A stretch of 64,000 nt of DNA. Source: an uncultured Kiloniellales bacterium. GTDB lineage: Bacteria; Actinomycetota; Acidimicrobiia; Spongiisociales; UBA5794. Positions 13,628 to 59,139 of this stretch are shown piece after piece (position 1 is the stretch's first letter; each line of letters begins with the position of its first letter). Below the pieces are notes generated by a model that saw nothing but the letters and a program-made list of their open reading frames with translations, made no database searches and was not told the DNA's origin. The position numbers and the translations under genes are program-made. The stretch is from the NCBI GenBank assembly GCA_964196275.1, contig CAXMSN010000092.1, positions 1,296 to 65,295 of the forward strand, read 5' to 3'.

Positions 13628-13631
13628 TTCG

Positions 13632-13659
13632 ATATCCGATATCCGATATCCGAAGTCCG
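13632..13659. repeat. Heptanucleotide tandem array H1
   Basis: Reads ATATCCG x3 then AAGTCCG, equivalent to CGATATC x3 then CGAAGTC. It begins 5 nt after the thrB stop, between the convergent genes thrB and yhhN-like. Confidence 0.85.
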
Positions 13660-14316: not shown

Positions 14317-14338
14317 CGCGAATCAGGCTATCGCCGAG

Positions 14339-14359
14339 GAGTCCGTGGTCCGTGGTCCG
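14339..14359. repeat. Heptanucleotide tandem array H2
   Basis: Reads AGTCCGT GGTCCGT GGTCCGA (phase CGTGGTC x2). It lies between the PTP stop and the yhhN-like start. Confidence 0.7.
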
Positions 14360-21244: not shown

Positions 21245-21274
21245 GATCGCCGCTAGCTGAATCGCCGCTAGCTG
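21245..21274. repeat. 15-bp tandem duplication spanning the copA stop codon
   Basis: ATCGCCGCTAGCTGA occurs twice on the plus strand. On the minus strand it reads ...CGG AGA TTC AGC TAG CGG CGA TTC AGC TAG, that is RRFS* duplicated in frame. Confidence 0.8.
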
Positions 21275-23460
21275 AATCTCCGCAAGCGAAGCGAGTTCAG
21301 CACTACCGAGACTGACGAGAAGGCCATCGCGCCCGCAGCGACCATTGGGCTGAGGAAGCCCAGCACTGCCAACGGAATCGCAGCGGTGTTGTAGCCGAAC
21401 GCCCAGAACAGGTTCTGGCGGATCGTCTTGAAGGTCCTTCTTGCAAGCGCTAGGGCGGTCACGATGCGCTCGGGATCCCCGGACATCAGGACGACGTCTC
21501 CGGCTTCGATAGCGACATCGGATCCTGTCCCGACGGCGATGCCCAGATCCGCTGTGGCGAGCGCGGGTGTGTCGTTGATCCCGTCTCCGACGAAGGCGAC
21601 CGATCGACCCTCTGTTTGAAGAGTGGTGATGGCATCTGCCTTCTGTCCTGGAAGAACCTCGGCGGTGACCCTGCTGATGCCGATCTCGGCCGCTATCGCG
21701 TCGGCTGTGGCCTGCGCATCTCCGGTGAGCATGGCGGTCGTGATCCCTTGCTCCTCCAATGCAGCGACAGCGATCTTCGAGTTGTCCCTGATCGTGTCTG
21801 CAACGGCAAGAACCCCTCGCACTTGGCCTTCCCAACCTGCGAGGAATGCGGTGTGACCCGCAGCTCCGAACGTGTTGAGTTGCTCCTCCCACGTATCGGC
21901 TCCCGGCCACCCCAACTCGTCGAACCATCGTGCCGAACCGACGCCGACGGTGATGCCGTCAACTATCCCGGTTGCTCCCATGCCGCGCTCGGCAGTGAAG
22001 GAGGTCGGCGCGACGAGTTCGATGTCCTTCTCCTCGGCTCCGAGAACTACGGCTCTTCCGATCGGGTGCTCGGACCCGAGTTCGAGAGATGCGACACGTT
22101 TGAGGAAGATGTGCTCATCTTGTTCGGTTGCGACGTTGGTGAGCGTCATGGCACCTCGAGTGAGCGTCCCTGTCTTGTCGAACACCACGGTGTCCACTGA
22201 GTGGGCGGTCTCGAACACCTGTGCGTTCTTGAACAGGACACCCATCGACGCCCCCCGACCCGACCCGACCATGATCGCCGTGGGCGTCGCAAGACCGAGC
22301 GCACAGGGGCATGCGATGATCAGGACGGCGACAGCGTTGGTCACCGCGATACCGATGTCACCGTCGATGAGCCACCAGATGATGCCGGTGAGGGCGGCGA
22401 TGACCATGACCGTCGGGACGAAGATGCCGGAGACCCGATCAGCGAGTTTCTGGACGGGAGCCTTGGTCGCCTGCGCATCCTCGACGAGGCGTGAGATCTG
22501 AGCGAGGGCGGTGTTCGGGCCCACATGGACAACTTCGATCTCAAGCCTTCCGTGCAGGTTCACGGTCGCGGCGAAGACCTCGCTCCCAGCCTCTTTGGCG
22601 ACGGCTGCACTCTCTCCGGTGAGCATCGACTCGTCGATCGCCGATTCGCCCTGTGTGACGGTGCCATCAGCGGGTATCCGCTCGCCGGGGAGCACCACAA
22701 CGGTGTTGCCCGGCGCCAGTTCGAGTGGATCGACGAGCGTTTCAACGCCATTGACAACCAGCCGTGCCTGCTTTGCGCCGAGTTCGGCGAGGCGGGCGAT
22801 CGCTTGTGAGGCTTGGCCCTTGGCCCGTGCCTCGAAGAATCTGCCGACAAGGATCAACGTCACGATCATCGCGGCGCTCTCGAAGAAGACGTGTGCTCCG
22901 CCGGATTCGAGGTGGTCGGCATGCACGATCGCTTCTGCACCCTGTGTGAGCAGTACGACGGTCGAGTATCCCCACGCGGCGAGGGTTCCCACCGATATGA
23001 GCGAGTCCATGGCGGGTGAGAGCGATGTCAGCTGCTTCCACGCGGCCGTGTGGAACTGCCACCCGAAGTAGAACACGATGATCGTCGTGAGGACCAGTTG
23101 AAGCCAGGGATTCCAGAGCTCCTCGGGACCGAGCATCGCGAGCAGCATGACGGGTGTCGCGAGCACCGCACTTCCGATGACGAGCCGCAGTTGCTTCTTC
23201 GCCTCGTCGTTGTACTTGTCTGTGACCGACCGGCGATCGTCATCCGGCCCGATCTCGACGATGTCATATCCGATCTTGGCGACGGCGGCATGCAACGCTT
23301 CGACATCCACCCCGTCGGCAACGGTTGCACGCGCCTCCTGGCTTGCGAAGTTGACGACGGCGAGGTCGACGCCCTCTTGTTTGCCGAGGACGCGCTCGAT
23401 CCTGACGGCGCACGAGGCACACGTCATCCCGTCGACGTCGAAGCGGATCGTGTCTGTCAT
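21268..23460 (-). CDS. copA: Copper-translocating P1B-type ATPase
   Basis: N-terminal HMA domain GMTCASCAVRIE, TGES, the CPC motif IACPCALGLATP, DKTGTLT and GDGINDTPAL. Confidence 0.95.
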   Translation of the reverse strand: MTDTIRFDVDGMTCASCAVRIERVLGKQEGVDLAVVNFASQEARATVADGVDVEALHAAVAKIGYDIVEIGPDDDRRSVTDKYNDEAKKQLRLVIGSAVLATPVMLLAMLGPEELWNPWLQLVLTTIIVFYFGWQFHTAAWKQLTSLSPAMDSLISVGTLAAWGYSTVVLLTQGAEAIVHADHLESGGAHVFFESAAMIVTLILVGRFFEARAKGQASQAIARLAELGAKQARLVVNGVETLVDPLELAPGNTVVVLPGERIPADGTVTQGESAIDESMLTGESAAVAKEAGSEVFAATVNLHGRLEIEVVHVGPNTALAQISRLVEDAQATKAPVQKLADRVSGIFVPTVMVIAALTGIIWWLIDGDIGIAVTNAVAVLIIACPCALGLATPTAIMVGSGRGASMGVLFKNAQVFETAHSVDTVVFDKTGTLTRGAMTLTNVATEQDEHIFLKRVASLELGSEHPIGRAVVLGAEEKDIELVAPTSFTAERGMGATGIVDGITVGVGSARWFDELGWPGADTWEEQLNTFGAAGHTAFLAGWEGQVRGVLAVADTIRDNSKIAVAALEEQGITTAMLTGDAQATADAIAAEIGISRVTAEVLPGQKADAITTLQTEGRSVAFVGDGINDTPALATADLGIAVGTGSDVAIEAGDVVLMSGDPERIVTALALARRTFKTIRQNLFWAFGYNTAAIPLAVLGFLSPMVAAGAMAFSSVSVVLNSLRLRRFS

Positions 23461-35204: not shown

Positions 35205-35225
35205 GCAGACGGCGGGCAACGCTTC

Positions 35226-35426
35226 GTCCTCCCTGAGAGGGAGGACGGGCGAGCGTAGCGAGCCAGGAGGGTGTTGGTTACCGGAGAACATTGGACCTGC
35301 AACATCCCCCTGCATCGTCCCTGCGCTTCTCTGCCGCCCGATATCCAGCCGCTCCGGGTTCGCAGGCTCACAGTCCCCCCTGCATCGTCGCTGCGCTCCT
35401 CTGCCGTCCCCCCTAAAGGGAGGACG
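35226..35426 (+). repeat. Structured intergenic repeat, copy A (contains an internal duplication)
   Basis: Opens with hairpin GTCCTCCCT-GAG-AGGGAGGAC, then GGGCGAGCGTAGCGAGCCAGGAGGGTGTTGG. Two copies of CCCCCTGCATCGTC(C/G)CTGCGCT(T/C)CTCTGCCG follow. It ends with hairpin CGTCCCCCC-TAAA-GGGAGGACG. Homologous to copies at 50312 (inverted) and 52027. Confidence 0.85.
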
Positions 35427-36007: not shown

Positions 36008-37576
36008 TCAGTCGACCCAGACCGGCAATTCCCGGTCCACAGCGACAGCGTTTCCGTCGACGAACGTCTCGATCACCTGTGCGTCCCGTACTTCTTGGGG
36101 TGAAGCGGCAGTGATATTGGTGTCGACAACCACGAGGTCAGCCGCGCTGCCTATCGCCATTGGCGGACGTTCTCGGATCGAACCAGCAGCGCCTTCGGTG
36201 AACAAGCCAAGCGCCTGCCTGCCCGATAGTGCCTCGTTCGGGTTGATGCCATGTCGGTCCATCGCGGCGGCGATACCCCACAGCGGATGTGGTGGCTCCA
36301 CGATGCAGTCTGAAGAACCTGCGACCTTGATGCCTGAATCGAGCATGGCCTTGAACGGGTAGACCCACTCCATCCGTTCCTCCCCAACTCTCGCCTCGAT
36401 CCACTCCGACTCTGAAGCAAGGAAAGCCGGTTGGACGACTGCCGTGGCACCTGATGCGGCGAATCGTGCGATAACCGAAGGGCTCGCCATCGAAACATGC
36501 TCCATTCGGAGATCCTCAGAATGGGAACCAGCCGCGATGAGCCCTTCGAAGACATCGAGCACACTGCTCACTGCTCGGTCACCTATCGCATGGATGGCGA
36601 CCATGCCTCCGAGAGCGAGGCTGTGTCGTGAGACCTCGATGTCGGCGTCCGTGAGCCGATATGTGCCGGTGGTCCCGCTATCGGAAAACGGGTCGCACAT
36701 GGCGGCCGTGTGTCCACCGAGGCTGCCATCGGCGAATCGCTTCACCCCGAGCCACCGCAGACGCTGACCTGCTCCGGTCATCATCTGGGCGGATGCAGTC
36801 AGATCGTCAGGCGTGGATGCGATCGATAACGCGTGCACCTTGATCGGAAGGTCAGGGGCGACTTCCCTCCACAGCTGAGATTCCGCAGCGAGCTTCTCGA
36901 ACGGGCTCTCCCCGTAGCCGACCATCGCCCCGATCGAGGTGATGCCGAGACCCGCGAGCTTGGTCATGCCGTCGACCAGCCTGTTCGGTGCGAGCGCATC
37001 ACCCCGAGCAAGCGCTGAAGAGATCAAACCTGTGGCCGTCTCCCTGAGCACTCCGGTTGGTTCCCCTCGCTCATCCCTGTCGATGAGCCCACCATCGGGA
37101 TCAGGAACGGATTCGTCGATATGCGATGCCGCAAGTGCCTTGCTGTTCGCAACGGCGACATGGCCGCAGTACCGGTAGATGACTGCCGGGCGGTCCGGAA
37201 CGGCCCGGTCGAGGTCCTCCCTCGTTGGAAGTCTGTGCTCGCGCAGCGACTCGTCGTCGAATCGGGTGGCGACAATCGGGTATCCGGGACGAACTGATCT
37301 GGCGAACGTTGCGAGTCGGTCCACCAGATCGTCGATGGAAACCGCAGATTTCAAAGAGCAGCCAGAGAGGAGAGCGGCATACGGAATCGCATGGATGTGG
37401 GCATCTCTGAATCCAGCGCTTACAAAAGCGCCATCGAATGCGAGGACGCGGTCGCCACTTCGCTCGATGTCGGATCGGTCCCCGATCGCTGCGATGAGCC
37501 CGTCGTCAATCGCGATCGCGTTCCCAACAGTCCCGGCTGCTGACACGACGGCGTCCGACGTGATCAGCGTCCTCAT
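36008..37576 (-). CDS. Amidohydrolase-family metallo-hydrolase (Amidohydro_3-like)
   Basis: Trimmed to MRTLITSDAVV. Contains GFRDAHIH (metal site) and later HAIGDRAV. The upstream extension is Arg-rich junk. Confidence 0.85.
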   Translation of the reverse strand: MRTLITSDAVVSAAGTVGNAIAIDDGLIAAIGDRSDIERSGDRVLAFDGAFVSAGFRDAHIHAIPYAALLSGCSLKSAVSIDDLVDRLATFARSVRPGYPIVATRFDDESLREHRLPTREDLDRAVPDRPAVIYRYCGHVAVANSKALAASHIDESVPDPDGGLIDRDERGEPTGVLRETATGLISSALARGDALAPNRLVDGMTKLAGLGITSIGAMVGYGESPFEKLAAESQLWREVAPDLPIKVHALSIASTPDDLTASAQMMTGAGQRLRWLGVKRFADGSLGGHTAAMCDPFSDSGTTGTYRLTDADIEVSRHSLALGGMVAIHAIGDRAVSSVLDVFEGLIAAGSHSEDLRMEHVSMASPSVIARFAASGATAVVQPAFLASESEWIEARVGEERMEWVYPFKAMLDSGIKVAGSSDCIVEPPHPLWGIAAAMDRHGINPNEALSGRQALGLFTEGAAGSIRERPPMAIGSAADLVVVDTNITAASPQEVRDAQVIETFVDGNAVAVDRELPVWVD

Positions 37577-38364
37577 TGCGGCGCGAGGTGCCCAGGAAGG
37601 TGGTTGTGGACGATCTTTCGTATGTCTTCGTGGATGGCGGCGTTGCCCGCGATGACGAGAGGATTGAATGGATCGGAAGGTGTGCCCCACGGGTCTGTGA
37701 CGATCCCGCCTGCCTCTCGCACCAGCAGCATTCCTGCCGCACCGTCCCACGGTGCGATACCGAGTTCCCAGTATGCGTCGAACCTTCCGGCCGCGACCCA
37801 GGCAAGGTCGAGCGCGGCTGATCCGAACCGTCTGAGCCCGTTGACTTCTCGCAGTACTTCACGGACGACGACACTCAGAGCATCGGCGTGAACGTCGTGG
37901 TCGTATGGGAAACCGGTTGCGACGACGGATTTCGACAGGTCGGAACTGTCCGAGACGGTGATCTTCTGACCGTTGAGGTTTGCTCCAGACCCGCTCTCAG
38001 CGATGAATACCTCGTTTCGGAGAACATCGATCACGACGCCAACGAGCGCCTGGCCTCCGTCCCACAGCGCAACCGATACGGAGACCTGGGGAATGTTGTG
38101 GACGAAGTTCACGGTCCCATCGAGCGGATCGATGATCCAGAACCTGCCCTCGTGCGACGTTCCCCCACCCTCTTCAGCGAGGATGCCGTCGGTTGGCTTC
38201 TCCGTTGAGATCACGTTGACGATCGCAGCCTCAGCGGCCTTGTCTGTCGTGGTCACCGGATCGAACTTGCGCTTGTACTCGGCGTCGTGCACCGCGCCGA
38301 AGGCTTCTCGTACGACGGCAGCGCCAGCGTGTGCGGCCTTGAGCGCCACAGCGAAATCATGCAT
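37573..38364 (-). CDS. Inositol monophosphatase family protein (SuhB/ImpA/HisN-like)
   Basis: Trimmed to MHDFAVALKAAH. Contains LAEEGG and WIIDPLDGTVNF. ATGA overlap with the downstream gene. Confidence 0.85.
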   Translation of the reverse strand: MHDFAVALKAAHAGAAVVREAFGAVHDAEYKRKFDPVTTTDKAAEAAIVNVISTEKPTDGILAEEGGGTSHEGRFWIIDPLDGTVNFVHNIPQVSVSVALWDGGQALVGVVIDVLRNEVFIAESGSGANLNGQKITVSDSSDLSKSVVATGFPYDHDVHADALSVVVREVLREVNGLRRFGSAALDLAWVAAGRFDAYWELGIAPWDGAAGMLLVREAGGIVTDPWGTPSDPFNPLVIAGNAAIHEDIRKIVHNHLPGHLAPQ

Positions 38365-38382
38365 TGGTGCGATGGTACTTGT

Positions 38383-38445
38383 GGGTTCCGGGTTCCGGGT
38401 TCTGGGTTCTGGCTCCGTGGTCCGTAGTCCGTGGTCCGTCATCTG
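38383..38445. repeat. Heptanucleotide tandem array H3 (9 units, the longest)
   Basis: GGGTTCC x2, GGGTTCT x2, GGCTCCG, TGGTCCG, TAGTCCG, TGGTCCG, TCATCTG. It lies in the divergent suhB-like / lnt intergenic region. Confidence 0.9.
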
Positions 38446-38470
38446 GCTTCCGTCCCTATCCTCCCGGCTC

Positions 38471-39958
38471 ATGATTCCCTTCGTTCTCATAGCCGCGAGT
38501 TCACTGATGATGTGGGCTGCCTTCCCGCCCATCGGGCTCGGCCCGCTCGCGTTCGTGGCCCCCATCCCGTTCTTCCTCGCCATCCGCGCTGTGGAGAAGG
38601 CCTCGGTCGCTGTGATGCTCGGGTTCGCGTGGGGAGCGCTGTTCTTCGGCCTACTCCTCACGTGGCTTATCACACTCGGCTACGTGGCATATCTGCCTGT
38701 GGTGGTATTGATGGCGGCATGGACCGCGTCGTATGCGTTCGTCGTCTGGATCTTCCGGCTGTGGGCGCCATGGCGGTGGTGGTACATCGTTGTTGGTGGG
38801 TGGGTGCTCATGGAGTGGCTTCGGGGAAGGATCCCGTTCGGTGGGTTTCCATGGGGAGACATCGGCTATCCGGCAGCGGCGCTTCCCGGCGCGGCTGGTT
38901 CGGTCCAGTGGATTGGACCCTCCGGATGGACCGTCCTGGTGGTGGCCGTCGCTGCTGGCTTTGCTCTTCTGATCGAGGACCGAGATCACTGGCGCATGGC
39001 CGTCGACGCTTCGGTGATCGTGCTCTTGCTGATGATCGCCGGTTGGCTGCTTCCACCGAACCCATCGGCACAACTGTGGAGGACGGCGATCGTTCAGGGC
39101 TCATCTCCCTGCCCACAGACCCACTGCCAGAACGAGAACCGTCGTATCTACGACTCCCATCTCGAACTCACGAAGACGATTCCCGTGGACTCGGTCGACT
39201 TCGTCATCTGGCCGGAGAACTCGACCGGTACGCCATACGAGCCTGAGAACAACGAGACGGTTCGTAACGAGATCATCGAACAAGCTCGCAGGCTGGACGC
39301 GTACATGCTGATCTCCGGAACCCGCATCGTGAGCGACACGGAGTTCGTGAACGTGAACGTTGTGTACTCACCCAACGGCGTGAAGATCGGCGAATACCTC
39401 AAACAACACCCGGTGCCGTTCGGTGAGATCGTTCCGCTGCGAGGCCTCCTCGGCTTCGTCCCGCAGCTCGACCAGGTTCCGCGAGACATGATCTCTGGAA
39501 CCGAGCCGGTGGTGTTCCCAACCGAGCAGGGGATTCTTGGGTCTGTAATCTCGTTTGAGGGCGCTTTTGCCCGGTCGATGAGGGAGATGGCACGGGCCGG
39601 CGCAGAGACGATGGTCATCGCCACGAACGAGTCGAGCTTCGGGCGATCGGTCGCCTCGGATCAACTGATCCTGCTCGCCCGTGTGAACGCAGCTGCGATC
39701 GGCCTCGACACGGCGCTCGGTGCGATCACCGGCAAGTCGACGTTCATCACGGGTGATGGGTCGGTCGGACCGAAAACAGAGCTGTTCACCGGTGTGGTGC
39801 ACTTCGGTTCGCAGCAGTTCAACGCAGAGGCAAGAACGCTCTGGGTGCGTCTCGGTGATTGGCTGGCGCTTCTGGCTGTGGCCGCTGCGCTGGTGGTCGC
39901 GCTGCTCCCGGGGGAGCGAACGGTGAGTCAAACATCCGTCACCGCAAGAAAGCCATGA
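38471..39958 (+). CDS. lnt: Apolipoprotein N-acyltransferase
   Basis: Trimmed to MIPFVLIAASSLMMWAAFPP. A multi-TM N-terminus with GGFPWG, and a C-terminal nitrilase-like domain (WPEN, ISFEG). Confidence 0.9.
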   Translation: MIPFVLIAASSLMMWAAFPPIGLGPLAFVAPIPFFLAIRAVEKASVAVMLGFAWGALFFGLLLTWLITLGYVAYLPVVVLMAAWTASYAFVVWIFRLWAPWRWWYIVVGGWVLMEWLRGRIPFGGFPWGDIGYPAAALPGAAGSVQWIGPSGWTVLVVAVAAGFALLIEDRDHWRMAVDASVIVLLLMIAGWLLPPNPSAQLWRTAIVQGSSPCPQTHCQNENRRIYDSHLELTKTIPVDSVDFVIWPENSTGTPYEPENNETVRNEIIEQARRLDAYMLISGTRIVSDTEFVNVNVVYSPNGVKIGEYLKQHPVPFGEIVPLRGLLGFVPQLDQVPRDMISGTEPVVFPTEQGILGSVISFEGAFARSMREMARAGAETMVIATNESSFGRSVASDQLILLARVNAAAIGLDTALGAITGKSTFITGDGSVGPKTELFTGVVHFGSQQFNAEARTLWVRLGDWLALLAVAAALVVALLPGERTVSQTSVTARKP

Positions 39959-41844: not shown

Positions 41845-43341
41845 ATGGAGTTCGCGGAGTACGAGACATTCGACGCGGTGGGGCTTGCGCAGCTTGTCGA
41901 GCATCGCGATGTTCAGGCTGCCGAATTGATCGACGCGGCCGCATCCCGCATCGAGGCGGTCAACCCTGCTGTCAACGCCGTGATCTGGGAACGGCTCGAC
42001 GCGGCGAGACGCGAAGCGGAGGAACCTCGGGAAGGGCCCTTTGCTGGAGTGCCCATCCTGATCAAGGATCTCGTCGTCGAGGAAGGCATCCCTGTCACCT
42101 TCGGCTCGGTCTTCTTCCGCGACTTCCTTGGCGAAACGACGTCTGTGTTCCGCGATCGCATCCGCAATGCGGGCTTCATCGATCTTGGACGCACCAACAC
42201 TCCGGAGTTCGGGCTGCTGCCTACGACGGAGCCGATGCTCCACGGCCCAACGCGCAACCCGTAGAACCTCGATCACTCGGTTGGCGGTTCCAGTGGTGGA
42301 GCTGCGGCAGCCGTTGCTGCAGGCATGGTGCCTCTTGCCCAAGGAAGCGATGGCGGAGGCTCGATCAGGATCCCTGCTTCAGCCGCTGGCCTGTTCGGGC
42401 TCAAACCATCACGGGGTCGCAACCCGAGATACCCCGGCACGTCGATCGACTACCTCTCGGTGGAGCATGTCATCACTCGCTCTGTTCGTGATAGCGCGGT
42501 GTTCCTCGATGCCGTCCATGGTCCGATACCCGGTGACCACTATTGGGCGCCTGCGCCATCGGCACCGTTCGCCAGTGCAGTCGATCGCGACCCGAAGCAA
42601 CTCACGATCGCGTTCAGCACCAAGGACTTCCGAGGTGGCAGTGTCCATCCCGAATGTGAGGCGGCGGTCTTGAATACCGTGGAGCTCCTTGAGGCGCATG
42701 GGCACACTGTTGTCGAGGCCGAGCCCGCTGTTGATGGTGATCTCCTCGCAGAGTCTTTTCTCGAACTCTGGGCTGCCCTGGCCGCAAACGGCTTCGGTCT
42801 TGTCCTCGACGGTGCGACGGACCTCAAGCCATCGATTGGCCGCGTGCGACGTCTGATTGGGGACAGGGCAACCATGAAGCTCATCAGCCGGGTCGACAAA
42901 CGCAGCTCGGGCCATCCCGCGTTCGAGCCGTTCACATTCGAACTTGCGCGACGTTCCGGTGCACGCTCGCAAGCTGATCTGTTGGCAGCGGAAGTTGCTC
43001 TGCAGACGATCGCCCACCAAACGGCAGCCTTCCTCACCACCCACGACATATTCCTCACGCCGGTGCTCGGATCGCCGCCGGTGCCCATCGGTCACATCGA
43101 CCAGCGGATGCCGTGGGACGAGTTCATCGAGATGATCTTCGCCTATGTGGCGTTCACACCTCTTGGGAACTTCGCAGGACTCCCCGCCATGTCGGTCCCG
43201 CTGCACTGGACCGAAGACGGTCTACCGGTCGGATCGCACTTCCTCGGCCGCTTCGGCGCCGAAGAAACCTTGTTCTCGCTAGCCGCCCAACTAGAACGAG
43301 CGAATCCATGGTTCAACAAGAGGCCGCCACCACTCACCTGA
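41845..43341 (+). pseudogene. Amidase-signature family amidase interrupted by an in-frame TAG (42262-42264)
   Basis: ORFs 41845..42264 and 42325..43341 are in the same frame. Joined, they read ...GPTRNP-[TAG][39 protein letters not shown]. The stop occupies the NPW Trp position (TGG to TAG, one transition). Confidence 0.75.
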
Positions 43342-43343
43342 AC

Positions 43344-43378
43344 CGAAGTCCGAAGCCCGAAGTCCGAAGTCCGAGCGG
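43344..43378. repeat. Heptanucleotide tandem array H4
   Basis: CGAAGTC CGAAGCC CGAAGTC CGAAGTC CGAGCGG. It starts 3 nt after the amidase stop, between convergent genes. Confidence 0.9.
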
Positions 43379-46821: not shown

Positions 46822-46865
46822 CTGGTGCCGAGGTTAATGAGTAGTCGCTCGCCTTCGGCTCGCTC

Positions 46866-46900
46866 CGTATTACGTACTACGTACTACGTGATCCGTCGTC
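46866..46900. repeat. Heptanucleotide tandem array H5, flanked by short-motif arms (M4)
   Basis: CGTATTA CGTACTA CGTACTA CGTGATC CGTCGTC. The left flank GTCGCTCGCCTTCGGCTCGCTCC (46844-46866) and right flank GATCCGTCGTCTGCGAAGCC resemble the M1-M3 motif parts. Confidence 0.85.
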
Positions 46901-50311: not shown

Positions 50312-50441
50312 CCGTCCTCCTTTCAAGGGGGACGGCAGAGGAGCACAGCGACGATGCAGGGGGATGTCGCAGCCCCAAGATTCCAGGTTGCCAACACCCT
50401 CCTGGCTCGCAAGCTCGCCCGTCCTCGCTCGCAGGGAGGAC
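50312..50441 (-). repeat. Structured intergenic repeat, copy B (inverted relative to A and C)
   Basis: Its reverse complement aligns with copy C. The first about 54 nt (hairpin 1 through CCAGGAGGGTGTTGG) has 1 mismatch, and the last about 58 nt (ACATCCCCCTGCATCGTCGCTG..GTCCCCCTTGAAAGG.GGACGG) has 2 mismatches. The central 20-30 nt differs. Confidence 0.9.
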
Positions 50442-50535
50442 AGAAGCTTCGAGGCGACCGCCCTCGACTGGTCCGTGGTCTTCTTCGGGAACATCTTGTT
50501 CCCGTTGTTCGTTATCTCGTAACTGTCTCTGAGGG

Positions 50536-51996: not shown

Positions 51997-52026
51997 TAGG
52001 AAGGTCGGAGTCGCCCCGATACTTCT

Positions 52027-52210
52027 GTCCTCCCTGCGAGGGAGGACGGGCGAGCTTGCGAGCCAGGAGGGTGTTGGGGGGGAAGTGCCTTGGCACCGTG
52101 ACTCTGCAACATCCCCCTGCATCGTCGCTGCGCTCCTCTGCCGTCCCCCTTGAAAGGGGGACGGAGGTATAGCGGTCTTCTGAAAGGGGGACGAAGGTAT
52201 AGCGGTCTTC
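52027..52210 (+). repeat. Structured intergenic repeat, copy C, with a 30-nt tandem duplication at its 3' end
   Basis: Opens with hairpin GTCCTCCCT-GCG-AGGGAGGAC, runs through ...CAACATCCCCCTGCATCGTCGCTGCGCTCCTCTGC, and ends with hairpin CGTCCCCCT-TGAA-AGGGGGACG. TGAAAGGGGGACG(G/A)AGGTATAGCGGTCTTC then occurs twice (52151-52180 and 52181-52210). Confidence 0.9.
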
Positions 52211-52212
52211 GG

Positions 52213-54372
52213 CTACCTCATTCTTCTTGGGATCGCCTCGCGCCAGATGGATGTGGCCTCAGTGAGGTCGATGGATCCCGCTGCTCCGAAGTCGATGCTG
52301 GTTCCTGCCACAGTTCCGATTCTCGTGTGAGGCTCGACCGTGTCGAGGTCGTTGCCGTGGGATACGGCCAGAAATCGGAGCGGGGTTTCATCGAGGAGCT
52401 CCGGGCCAGACATGGCTGTGATCTTGATTCCGATTCCCGATGCGATCGCGATCTCTGCGAGGGCGACCGCTGCTCCACCGATTGATATGTCATGGAGCAC
52501 CGGTGTCTCGAATGCGAGCGTTGCGGCAGCTGCCACCGCTCTTCTTGCGGAATCACCATCGACGTCGGCAGGCCGGCCGCCGAGATTCTTGTTGATGATC
52601 CGGTCGTATGCAGATCCGGCGAAGTCTCCCTTCGCTTCGCGACCGACAAGCCAGATCGACATGCCTTCCTCGGCTCGGTCGAGGCGGGGTGGACTGTCTG
52701 GCATCGGATCGCAGAACCCGAGCATTCCGACCACCGGAGTCGGGTAGATGTCGACACCGTCTGTCTGGTTGTAGAACGAGACGTTGCCTCCGACCACCGG
52801 GACGTCGAGTTCCTCGCACGCCCACGCCATTCCTTCGACTGACTCGACGAATTGCCACATGACGTCAGGGTTCTCCGGGTTCCCGAAGTTGAGATTGTCG
52901 ACGAGGGCGTACGGCCGGGCACCGGTGACAGCGACGTTCAGAGCGGACTCGAAAACGATTCGGGCGCTTGTGCGTCTTGGATCGAGGTAGGTGCGGAGCG
53001 AGTCTCCGTCGGTCGATGCGGCGAGGCCTTTCTGCGTTCCTTTGATCCTCATCAGCGACCCGTCATGCCCAGGCTCGATGACGGTGTTGAGGAACAGCAT
53101 GTGGTCGTACTGGCTCGAGATCCACGACCTGTCTCCGATCGCAGGGTCATCGAGCAGAACCGCGAGCACAGCCCCAACATCAATGTCCTCCGGGATGTGG
53201 GGCTCAGACGCCCAGACGTCGTCGAGGTACGAAGGCCGCTCGTACGGCCGGTGGTACAGCGGCGCATCGTCGGCAAGTGATGCTGCGGGGACCTCAGCGA
53301 CGAGTTCATTGTCGGCGTAAACGGTGAGGTCTGGTCCAGCCGTGACCGTTCCGATCGTCGATGCCTCGATCTCCCACCGCTGGGCAAGCTCAAGCACCGC
53401 GCTCTCGTTCTCAGGTGTCACGATGGCGAGCATCCGCTCCTGGGATTCCGACATGAGGATCTCTCCGGGAGTCATGTCACTCTCGCGGAGGTGGACGCTG
53501 TCGAGGTCGACCTCCATGCCCATTCCGCCGTTCCCCGCCGTCTCGGATGTCGCACACGAGATCCCTGCTGCGCCGAGGTCCTGTATCGCGACGACGAGGT
53601 TGCGTTGGTAGAGATCAAGACACGCCTCGATCAGTTTCTTCTCTTCGAACGGATCACCGACCTGGACGTTCGGCCGCTTCGCCTCGTCGCCCTCTTCGAA
53701 GGATGCCGAAGCAAGGATCGAAGCCCCTCCGATCCCATCCCTGCCTGTGGCGTTTCCGAGCAGGATCGCCTTGTTCCCTTCCCCCGATGCGGCAGACAGC
53801 ACGAGTTGTTCCTTCTTCAAGAGGCCGAGCGCCATGACATTGACAAGAGGGTTCTTGGAGAACCGGTCTGCGAACTCGACTTCTCCGCCGAGCGTCGGCA
53901 CACCGACGGCGTTCCCATAACCGGCGATTCCGGAGACGACCCCCTCGAACAGGTAGCGGTTCTGAGGCTCGTCGAGGGGCCCGAAGCGCAGCGGATCCCA
54001 CACCGCAACCGGTCGAGCACCCATGGTGAATATGTCCCTGAGGATCCCGCCAACACCCGTGGCAGCACCTTGATAGGGCTCGACATAAGAGGGGTGATTG
54101 TGGCTTTCGATGCGTACGGCGGCGAGCCACCCATCGCCGATGTCGACGACGCCGGCGTTCTCGCCCGGTCCGACGACGACCCACGGCTGGTCTGACGAGA
54201 ACTTCCCGAGATGTGCACGAGACGACTTGTACGAGCAGTGCTCGGACCACATCACCGAGTACATCGCGAGTTCTGCGTCCATGGGCTCGCGCCCAAGGAT
54301 CTCGATGACCTGCTGGTACTCGTCATCCGTCATGCCGAGTTGAATGTGGGCGGGCGCCTCCGTATCTGTCAT
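52213..54372 (-). CDS. purL: Phosphoribosylformylglycinamidine synthase subunit II
   Basis: 719 aa. Contains [17 protein letters not shown] and two PurM-like repeats. Confidence 0.95.
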
Positions 54373-58458: not shown

Positions 58459-59109
58459 ATGCACGACGCGTACTTTTCCGATCGAATCGAAGCAGGTCGG
58501 GCGCTCGCTGAGACGCTCCACGATTTGTCTGACCGCGACGACGTAGTCGTTCTTGCACTGCCCAGAGGGGGAGTGCCTGTTGGGTTCGAGGTCGCTCGAC
58601 GACTGAACGCACCGCTGGATGTCATCGTCGTCCGCAAGATCGGCACGCCCGGACAGCAAGAGTTGGCGATGGGGGCGGTCGCATCGGGTGGAGCGCTTGT
58701 TCGCAACGAGTGTGTCATCAACAGCATGCGCGTCGACGAAGCGACGTTCGACCGTGTGGCAGATCAGAAACGGCGCGAGGTTCGAGATCGAGAACAGCTC
58801 TTCCGTGGTGATAGTGAACCGCTTGCGGTGAAAGAGAAGGTTGTGATCGTCGTTGATGACGGTGTTGCGACGGGATCGACGATCATCGCCGCACTTCGGG
58901 CGCTCAGGCAACTCGGGCCGGCGCGTGTGATTGTGGCCGTCCCGGTCGCACCGCCAGACACGGTCGCCGCCCTTTCCGAGATCGCCGACGAGGTAGTAGC
59001 CCTGAAGATGCCAACACCCTTCATGGCAGTGGGCGCCTGGTACGGCTCCTTCCCTCAGGTCCCCGACAAGGAAGTAATACGCCTCCTCAAGAAGCTACGC
59101 AATACGTAG
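58459..59109 (+). CDS. Phosphoribosyltransferase-domain protein
   Basis: Trimmed to MHDAYFSDRIEAGRALA. Contains VVLALPRGGVPVG and the PRPP loop VVIVVDDGVATGST. Confidence 0.8.
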   Translation: MHDAYFSDRIEAGRALAETLHDLSDRDDVVVLALPRGGVPVGFEVARRLNAPLDVIVVRKIGTPGQQELAMGAVASGGALVRNECVINSMRVDEATFDRVADQKRREVRDREQLFRGDSEPLAVKEKVVIVVDDGVATGSTIIAALRALRQLGPARVIVAVPVAPPDTVAALSEIADEVVALKMPTPFMAVGAWYGSFPQVPDKEVIRLLKKLRNT

Positions 59110-59139
59110 TACGTATTACGTGGTCTGTGGCCTGTGGTC
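59105..59139. repeat. Heptanucleotide tandem array H6
   Basis: CGTAGTA CGTATTA CGTGGTC TGTGGCC TGTGGTC. It begins inside the PRTase stop codon and ends 5 nt before the purB stop (convergent genes). Confidence 0.85.

Follow-up and report, generated by a model that had tools for sequence, protein, structure and literature searches.

Intergenic heptanucleotide tandem arrays in an uncultured Acidimicrobiia bacterium and their variation between strains and relatives

Heptanucleotide repeats in bacteria

The cyanobacterial short tandemly repeated repetitive (STRR) sequences STRR1–3 are built from the units CCCCAGT, TTGGTCA and CAACAGT. The simple sequence repeats (SSRs) of the so-called contingency loci of host-adapted pathogens usually have units of 1–5 nt and are located in open reading frames (ORFs), or between the -35 and -10 elements, of surface or virulence genes. 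The present analysis concerns a tandem array of 7-nt units at positions 38383–38445 of a 64-kb stretch of DNA from an uncultured member of the Acidimicrobiia (contig CAXMSN010000092.1, hereafter the window, whose numbering is used throughout), where it separates an inositol monophosphatase (IMPase, suhB-like) gene from lnt, together with arrays of the same period at five other intergenic sites of the window.

According to the accounts given in two later papers (PMC4679880, PMC4692102), the survey of Mrazek, Guo and Shah (2007) identified 7-nt units as by far the dominant class of long simple-sequence repeats (LSSRs), with a bias towards non-coding DNA, and found heptamer-rich genomes to be phylogenetically scattered, with three Actinobacteria among the top genomes; the cause proposed was slippage of the polymerase, connected with how long a stretch of DNA the enzyme holds. 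The GGGAATC repeats of Xanthomonas and the GGGGA(C/T)T repeats of Nostoc are intergenic, lie near ORF ends with housekeeping genes of all classes as neighbours, and vary extensively in length and sequence between close relatives at the same spacers, no function having been established for them (Rehm et al. 2015, PMC4692102). For these repeats, too, slippage is cited as a hypothesis (PMC4692102; PMC4679880), and a preprint on the Nostoc heptamers describes only modest promoter effects (bioRxiv 10.1101/2022.06.06.494920). The TAACTGA repeats of Beggiatoaceae, cyanobacteria and Bacteroidetes are lineage-restricted and occur in 2–6 copies at >100 intergenic loci; an RNA-binding regulator (S1, Csp or Csr) has been proposed, though not shown, to act on them (MacGregor 2015, PMC4679880).

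With the STRR sequences of Calothrix, Nostoc and Anabaena the arrays described here share tandem 7-nt units and the reuse of few unit families at many dispersed intergenic loci (this reuse was counted in 64 kb of the genome, and a genome-wide figure is an extrapolation), and the likeness proposed in an initial annotation of the window stands at the level of a family of intergenic heptanucleotide tandem arrays. However, the phylum is a different one, the G+C content is higher (62%), the arrays are mostly short (3–11 units), and the window holds no identical canonical unit or tandem copy of the three STRR units, nor any unit matching TAACTGA, GGGAATC or the Nostoc heptamers. The LSSRs, as far as those accounts describe them, are alike in the dominance of period 7, the non-coding bias and a scattered, lineage-specific abundance, but the present arrays are patchy within one family-level clade and comprise many unit families in one genome. 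The Xanthomonas and Nostoc repeats have nearly all the properties seen here, including closeness to ORF ends, under-representation between divergent genes and occasional inverted pairs, and one half of the array at 38383 (site 3a) is capable of forming a G-quadruplex (G4), as those repeats are; those genomes, however, use essentially one G-rich unit with a preference for four copies, whereas most units here are not G-rich and form no G4.

Most TAACTGA sets precede a start codon by a few nucleotides, and they consist of a single unit with stops in all frames, whereas the present arrays mostly follow stop codons, avoid the segment from the -10 element to the ATG, and use many units. An identity as units with stop codons in all frames was rejected, since only the TACGTAG family, as read from the sequences, holds any stop codon. 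Contingency loci are alike in their slippage-driven copy number, and an array in a promoter spacer such as that at 38383 could in principle alter expression; yet the neighbours here are purine biosynthesis genes, lnt, the IMPase gene and others of this sort, and most arrays are downstream of genes. Phase-variation contingency loci were accordingly rejected, the neighbours being of housekeeping type and the arrays lying outside ORFs and -10-to-ATG segments. The initial annotation had recognised no equivalent family for this type of genome. Our literature search likewise returned no report linking Acidimicrobiia with heptamer repeats, but an excess of heptamers is known, by the same second-hand accounts (PMC4679880, PMC4692102), from scattered bacteria that include three Actinobacteria. 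The Acidimicrobiia are a new lineage for a known heptamer-repeat phenomenon, whose function in other phyla is not established.

Period-7 arrays of the window and its relatives

Direct reading of 38383–38445 gives nine in-register units, namely GGGTTCC (twice), GGGTTCT (twice), GGCTCCG, TGGTCCG, TAGTCCG, TGGTCCG and TCATCTG, in exact agreement with the initial annotation, and the array covers 63 of the 106 nt from the start codon of the IMPase gene (38364, - strand) to the ATG of its divergent neighbour lnt (38471). Tandem Repeats Finder (TRF) reports period-7 arrays here and at all five other sites that had been named, with 2.7–4.6 copies per block, 84–100% matches and 0% indels (Table 1; the sub-blocks called were 38382–38412 and 38414–38439 at site 3, and 59103–59121 and 59120–59139 at site 6), and its only other period-7 results in the window are two chance-level matches of 2.1 copies. 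A lag-match scan of the window found five strong period-7 arrays, against a mean of 0.1 in dinucleotide-preserving shuffles, and 0–1 array at each of the other periods from 4 to 13; within the window, the possibility that such arrays are no commoner than in shuffled sequence is refuted. The arrays occupy six of 32 short spacers. Intergenic autocorrelation is 0.302 at lag 7 and 0.298 at lag 14, compared to 0.249 in coding DNA, and once the six arrays are masked the signal at both lags is at background, with no cryptic decayed arrays in the other spacers of the window; the six sites therefore represent the whole phenomenon in this stretch. The CG at a fixed phase (CGNNNTM), which had been put forward as the signature of the family, holds on the + strand across the six sites, although it shifts by one position inside the array at 38383, and as a family trait it fails in the units GAAAGCT, ACTGTGA, CAAAGAC and AAGTACC of relatives. 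It belongs to the unit repertoire of this genome, not to the whole family.

The arrays are intergenic in all six cases in the window and in 32 of 32 cases in 155 kb of clade sequence, at a coding fraction of 87–90%; three arrays flagged as coding by a crude gene caller reflect over-extended start codons. Pfam verifies all genes flanking the six arrays, which are of housekeeping type without a common theme, and every array of the window is therefore intergenic. In the window, five of the six adjoin a stop codon; in the clade, 12 of the 19 spacers that bear arrays have an array no more than 11 nt away from such a codon. For example, site 1 begins 2 nt past the GHMP-kinase stop codon in a spacer of 62 nt, site 4 begins 1 nt past the amidase stop codon in a spacer of 65 nt, site 2 is 4 nt from the stop codon of the low-molecular-weight (LMW) phosphatase gene and 10 nt upstream of the -10-like box TAGCCT of YhhN, and site 5 is located between the AIR-synthase-family stop codon and the -10-like box of the SLFN_AlbA_2 gene. 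Site 6 fills its 34-nt spacer, and the TAG with which the phosphoribosyltransferase gene ends is part of the array itself; at L002 8045, too, the stop codon is supplied by an array (L numbers designate the contigs and loci compared). Towards start codons, the arrays end 5–12 nt short of conserved TANNNT boxes.

Table 1. Period-7 arrays of the window, the genes that flank them, and associated genes and promoter-like boxes
Feature	Position	Strand	Units or description	Flanking genes (left / right; Pfam)
Site 1	13630–13659		CGATATC x3 + CGAAGTC + CG (TRF, 100% match)	convergent: GHMP kinase / YhhN
Site 2	14341–14359		GTCCGTG x2.7 (TRF)	same direction: YhhN (start side) / LMW phosphatase (stop side)
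Site 3a	38383–38412		(C/T)GGGTTC x4 (TRF)	divergent: inositol monophosphatase / Lnt
Site 3b	38413–38445		GCTCCGT GGTCCGT AGTCCGT GGTCCGT CATCTG (TRF)	as site 3a
Site 4	43343–43374		CCGAAGT x4.6 (TRF)	convergent: amidase / enoyl-CoA hydratase
Site 5	46866–46889		CGTACTA x3.4 (TRF)	same direction: SLFN_AlbA_2 (start side) / AIR-synthase family (stop side)
Site 6	59103–59139		TACGTAG-type x3, then GTGGTCT-type x3 (TRF)	convergent: phosphoribosyltransferase / adenylosuccinate lyase
IMPase family gene (suhB-like)	37573–38364	-	Pfam PF00459, E 7.7e-67	
lnt, apolipoprotein N-acyltransferase	38471–39958	+	Pfam LNT_N + CN_hydrolase	
-10-like box TACCAT	38372–38377	-	7 nt before IMPase ATG; array begins 5 nt beyond box	
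-10-like box TATCCT	38457–38462	+	8 nt before lnt ATG; array ends 11 nt upstream of box	
TANNNT box of YhhN	14325–14330	-		
TANNNT box of SLFN_AlbA_2	46831–46836	-		

The best genome matches are uncultured Acidimicrobiia, with IMPase identities of up to 68%; a metagenome scan returned relatives at 95% and 83%, and a search with ilvD syntenic contigs at 90–92%. Dense period-7 arrays are present in the lineage of the window (L089, L090, L169 and L171), in L002/L003 and in L005, and no period-7 array is present in 62 kb of L007, L093, L095 and L096, or in L092, L006 and L094. Five relatives (50 kb) contain 14 period-7 arrays and none at periods 4–6 and 8–11, and 153 other loci (2042 kb) contain five at period 7 and one to five at each other period. 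The density is 0.09–0.28 arrays per kb in three sub-lineages of one Acidimicrobiia clade, versus 0.002 per kb in the other loci (2 Mb), and the array-rich lineages are interleaved with array-free relatives inside a single family-level clade. The occurrence of the arrays is both lineage-specific and patchy, and the excess concerns period 7 alone. Among the control loci, heptamer arrays were noted at L035 774–798 and 7792–7818 (a Chlamydiales metagenome-assembled genome (MAG); ATGAGTG, in both orientations), at L137 7899–7941 and at L129 5100–5124 (units ACTGATT x6 and AGTGAGC); their presence in unrelated loci fits the scattered distribution of heptamer repeats.

Strains of the same species were compared at sites 1, 2, 3 and 6 by means of contigs with identical YhhN, IMPase or PurB products, taken from an NCBI MAG (GCA_964196555.1), two Logan runs and two JGI metagenomes. 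All of these contigs, described as four independent sources, contain arrays, and this recurrence rules out an assembly artefact, which had been named as a possibility. Site 1 has three units in the window and in L081–L083 and four (GGATATC) in JGI contig L084, a gain of 7 nt (24 versus 31 nt between fixed anchors), while site 3a has four units in the window and nine, of the form (A/G)GAACCC, in JGI contig L086, a gain of 35 nt (56 versus 91 nt between fixed anchors). Both differences are exact multiples of 7. Site 3b shows no difference between the window and L086, site 2 is invariant in four other assemblies, and site 6 is invariant in L087 and L088. Whole units are thus gained and lost between conspecific strains, which directly demonstrates the behaviour of a variable-number tandem repeat (VNTR), the replication-slippage hotspot that was one of the roles initially envisaged. 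Site 3a is the young, hypervariable half of the longest array, and site 3b its older, degenerate half. A further contig, L085 of GCA_964196555.1 (CAXMUF010000032.1, positions 1–229), departs from the window inside the site 3 array: it has a different unit mix at site 3a, ends 229 nt beyond the IMPase start and, from the point of departure, runs into an inverted GGGTTCT / AGAACCC array pair in place of lnt. Either the DNA is inverted or otherwise rearranged here, or the contig is a chimera produced when the repeat was assembled. Arrays also coincide with an N-gap in L005 and with contig ends in L005 and L169.

Between species, the units themselves differ. The 95%-identical relative L089 has CAAAGAC x3 in the IMPase/lnt spacer where the window has GGAACCC x4, and the two share older NNCGGAC units in that spacer; related NNCGGAC units occupy the site 3b position in L089, L005 and L093/L095/L096, and units of this type are kept at the IMPase/lnt spacer across relatives down to ~63% protein identity. 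In L171, the same spacer is 22 nt long and without an array. The spacer orthologous to site 5 measures 41 nt without an array in L170, 89 nt in the window, and 288 nt with three arrays in L171, while a composite array of 19 units (136 nt; L169 1160–1295) makes up 73% of a divergent spacer. The arrays in general are composites of sub-blocks whose units differ by 1–3 substitutions, as illustrated by the series GGGTTCC, GGGTTCT, GGCTCCG, TGGTCCG, TAGTCCG at site 3 and TACGTAG, TACGTAT, TACGTGG, TCTGTGG at site 6. These comparisons show that, from one species to another, the units are replaced but the period of 7 is retained.

Identical units recur at unrelated loci, a canonical unit being shared in 9 of 210 array pairs compared to 0.33 expected. 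GTCCGTR is common to site 2 and site 3b and is found three times in L169, TACGTAG occurs at sites 5 and 6, CGATATC in the window and L002, ACGTCAG in L002 and L003, and AACTGTG three times in L005. The flanks of same-unit arrays have no shared sequence, terminal inverted repeats or target duplications, indicating that the arrays do not travel as part of a larger element. In three long arrays (L002 14726, L003 9486 and L003 7766) a CCGA core is kept while the other three positions vary (heterogeneity p = 0.001–0.035), and a spacing of 7 between one CCGA and another, or one ACGT and another, is enriched in this clade alone; core heterogeneity is non-significant in the window's own arrays. Units that consist of a 6-nt palindrome plus one nucleotide (GATATC+C, TACGTA+C/G, GACGTC+N) account for ~4 of 14 families, where ~11% is expected, an excess that is suggestive only, these families being related to one another. 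GC skew is positive over nearly the whole window, the + strand of which is probably the leading strand, and every TCCG-type array of the window and of syntenic L169 carries its units on that strand. A uniform strand orientation was nevertheless rejected, as a single spacer holds both orientations in L002 and L003; inverted array pairs are found in L002/L003, L090 and L171.

Origin of the arrays

The arrays are probably heptanucleotide VNTR-type long simple-sequence repeats of the STRR/LSSR kind, slippage-driven and near-neutral, which fill unconstrained spacer and are homogenised between loci. The features by which such arrays are recognised are all present, i.e., tandem units in at least three copies, an excess of period 7, non-coding bias, unit reuse and VNTR behaviour. 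Replication slippage would duplicate and delete units, and point mutations would give rise to unit variants that are then amplified into sub-blocks, a succession readable directly in the arrays. Ectopic conversion or template switching would carry a limited repertoire of units, peculiar to each genome, into spacers that are unrelated to one another, as is suggested by the sharing of units without shared flanks. Selection would remove arrays only from coding sequence or core promoter elements, as the positional pattern suggests, and the arrays would expand within, and inflate, the free parts of spacers. The preference for 7 nt would, as in the proposal of Mrazek, stem from the machinery of replication or repair, and any effect on expression of IMPase and lnt would be a by-product of the changed promoter separation. 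Several points weigh against this explanation. Slippage alone does not explain the identical units at unrelated loci, nor the CCGA core kept in the long L002/L003 arrays; the lasting NNCGGAC-type units at the IMPase/lnt spacer could reflect constraint; the patchy distribution points to a lineage-specific factor; and the reason for 7 nt over other periods is not demonstrated here or in the literature.

Given the unexplained period, the lineage patchiness, the CCGA core and the 7-nt spacing, a sequence-specific binder remains the main rival, and it is a possible, if unlikely, source of the arrays. On this view the arrays would serve as platforms to which an oligomeric protein with a footprint of 7 nt binds at multiple sites, either on RNA (3' or 5' untranslated region, UTR) or on single-stranded or double-stranded DNA, for example with one cold-shock/OB-fold domain per heptamer or with a HutP-like ring that reads a 3–4-nt core every 7 nt, and the unit repertoire of each genome would co-evolve with the binder. 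In favour of such a platform are the limited, genome-specific repertoire reused at unrelated loci, the cores with three variable positions, the clade-restricted core spacings of 7, the related units that persist in the IMPase/lnt spacer and the lack of structure, which leaves the arrays accessible; for CspB, each heptamer is bound by one protein (PMC4679880), and a binder has been speculated upon for the Nostoc heptamers (bioRxiv 10.1101/2022.06.06.494920). A platform of this kind is difficult to reconcile with many unit families that lack a common core (GAAAGCT, ACTGTGA, AAGTACC, AGAGCAC and GGAACCC), with presence or absence at orthologous spacers of close relatives and copy number that varies within a species, with the occurrence of both orientations and no consistent position relative to transcripts, with flanking genes that have no theme, or with the non-significant core heterogeneity of the window arrays. 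The closeness to stop codons noted above, and array-bearing convergent spacers that lack intrinsic terminators, might instead suggest transcript 3'-end elements, i.e., Rho-dependent terminators, Rho utilization (rut)-like loading sites or 3'-UTR stabilisers, for which an unstructured array would be suitable. This is improbable: divergent promoter spacers carry arrays too (site 3, L169 1160–1295 and the ilvD-lytR spacer of L002/L003), an array of L002 sits between a stop codon and a good canonical bidirectional terminator, orthologous spacers manage without arrays, and the enrichment of convergent spacers in the clade (8/21 versus 11/52) is not significant. A rut-like C-rich tract was rejected, there being no consistent C>G bias on the mRNA strand and sites 5 and 6 being G-rich. 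That the arrays are not classical terminators had been stated in the initial annotation, and it is borne out by the absence of a terminator-like site: a consensus scan for intrinsic terminators, which consist of a G+C-rich hairpin with a U-tract behind it, finds none in any array-bearing spacer, and ten spacer folds are no better than shuffles (z -1.8 to +1.6, most positive). Rfam 15, at the gathering threshold, has no match in the whole window.

Two further explanations concern particular features of the arrays. The segment 38383–38406, (GGGTTCY)x4, is a canonical G3-N4 x4 quadruplex motif and the sole one on the + strand in 64 kb, and 38383–38412 might on that basis be a G4/i-motif element upstream of the divergent IMPase and lnt promoters whose copy number tunes transcription; the G-rich heptamers of Xanthomonas and Nostoc form G4 in vitro and favour four units (PMC4692102). 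We consider this very unlikely, since G-tracts are found in only one of the six arrays, the other five failing the criterion for G4-forming heptamers (at least four tracts of G3+, loops of 1–7 nt) in a G4 motif scan, the strain variant has nine units, close relative L089 has the non-G4 unit CAAAGAC at the same place, and folding with G4 energy terms favours ordinary pairing. Moreover, Rehm et al. could show no regulatory role even in Xanthomonas (PMC4692102). The presence of the same units at dispersed loci had also raised the idea of a mobile-module remnant, in the sense of remnants or cargo of a small element such as a miniature inverted-repeat transposable element (MITE) or a repetitive extragenic palindromic (REP) sequence, or of insertion-excision footprints, and a separate dispersed hairpin element of ~125 nt does show that small mobile repeats exist in this genome. 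That element is not associated with the arrays, however, the arrays change in situ by single 7-nt units, and the unrelated flanks of same-unit arrays, on account of which a MITE/REP-type element was rejected, leave this last idea largely refuted and most improbable.

Neighbouring features and significance of the arrays

The boxes TACCAT and TATCCT on either side of the site 3 array (Table 1) are predicted to be leaderless-type promoters of IMPase and lnt. The IMPase box is TACCAT or TAGCAT in most of the orthologous spacers of 17 relatives, with few variants (TACTAT, TACCCT), and the complement of the lnt box, GGATAGG or CATAGG, is kept in most, with GGATATC in L093/L095 and GGTTAGG in L001. 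The array would sit between two back-to-back leaderless-type promoters and alter their separation: the IMPase/lnt spacer is ~70 nt long in relatives that lack an array, compared to 106 nt in the window and 141 nt in L086. Similar TANNNT boxes were noted 7–9 nt before four starts, namely those of IMPase, lnt, YhhN and SLFN_AlbA_2 (Table 1), which suggests, as far as sequence can tell, that leaderless mRNAs are common in this organism. The amidase gene beside site 4 seems split into two ORFs on the same strand, an upstream one at 41845–42264 (139 aa) and one at 42325–43341 (338 aa), the latter of which aligns with the Pfam Amidase profile from position 142 onwards only; a frameshift, a pseudogene or a sequencing error could account for the split.

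A second, unrelated family of dispersed repeats is represented at 35221–35339 (with a partial copy at 35376–35426), 50313–50447 (inverted) and 52022–52163. Its hairpin-bearing element of ~120–130 nt has the arrangement CGTCCTCCC-TGAGA-GGGAGGACG ... CCCCCTGCATCGTCSCTGCGCTYCTCTGCCG ... CGTCCCCC-TTGAAA-GGGGGACG, the copies in the three spacers are 81–94% identical, and it is also found after ilvD in L169; it looks REP/MITE-like. In L171, a different duplicated module of ~130 nt is present after ilvD. At the tail of the hairpin-bearing element, a 30-nt unit is repeated twice at 52151–52210 (96% match, TRF score 113), just before the stop codon of the gene 52213–54372. Two repeats are associated with a P-type ATPase gene (21268–23460, -): a period-15 tandem repeat, ATCGCCGCTAGCTGA x2.8, at 21246–21287, over the 3' end of the gene and the adjoining convergent spacer, and a pentamer, CCCGA x3.4, at 22241–22266 (- strand) in the coding region, the latter being the sole canonical G4 motif on the - strand. 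In L002 (6700–6790) and L003 (1492–1600), a well-conserved leader of ~100 nt, CTAGAATCTCGGCATGC.GTGCGCACCACG.ATCGATCG...AAGGAGCAGA.ATG, follows an array upstream of an orthologous gene and may be a cis-regulatory RNA.

Spacers are inflated several-fold by the arrays (41 versus 288 nt at site 5), and short-read assemblies seem to be broken or scrambled at them (L005, L169 and L085). The arrays can also mislead the calling of nearby start codons, and they are ready VNTR strain markers for an uncultured marine group. A more far-reaching proposal, which we regard as unlikely, is that a clade-specific factor, either a replication or repair variant prone to 7-nt slippage or an oligomeric reader of a YCCGR-type core on RNA or DNA, creates or maintains arrays in a 7-nt register, and that the cell uses them as evolvable spacers for promoter separation and 3'-UTR length. 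Why 7 nt is favoured in scattered bacteria is a question that dates from the STRR papers (1990) and the Mrazek survey (2007). The main value of this clade is that relatives with 0.1–0.3 arrays per kb stand beside relatives with none in tens of kb, which makes the question approachable: since array-rich lineages are interleaved with array-free sisters, a clade-specific factor could be identified by comparative genomics, and a comparison of the replication, repair and RNA-binding gene content of array-rich and array-free relatives could reveal the cause.

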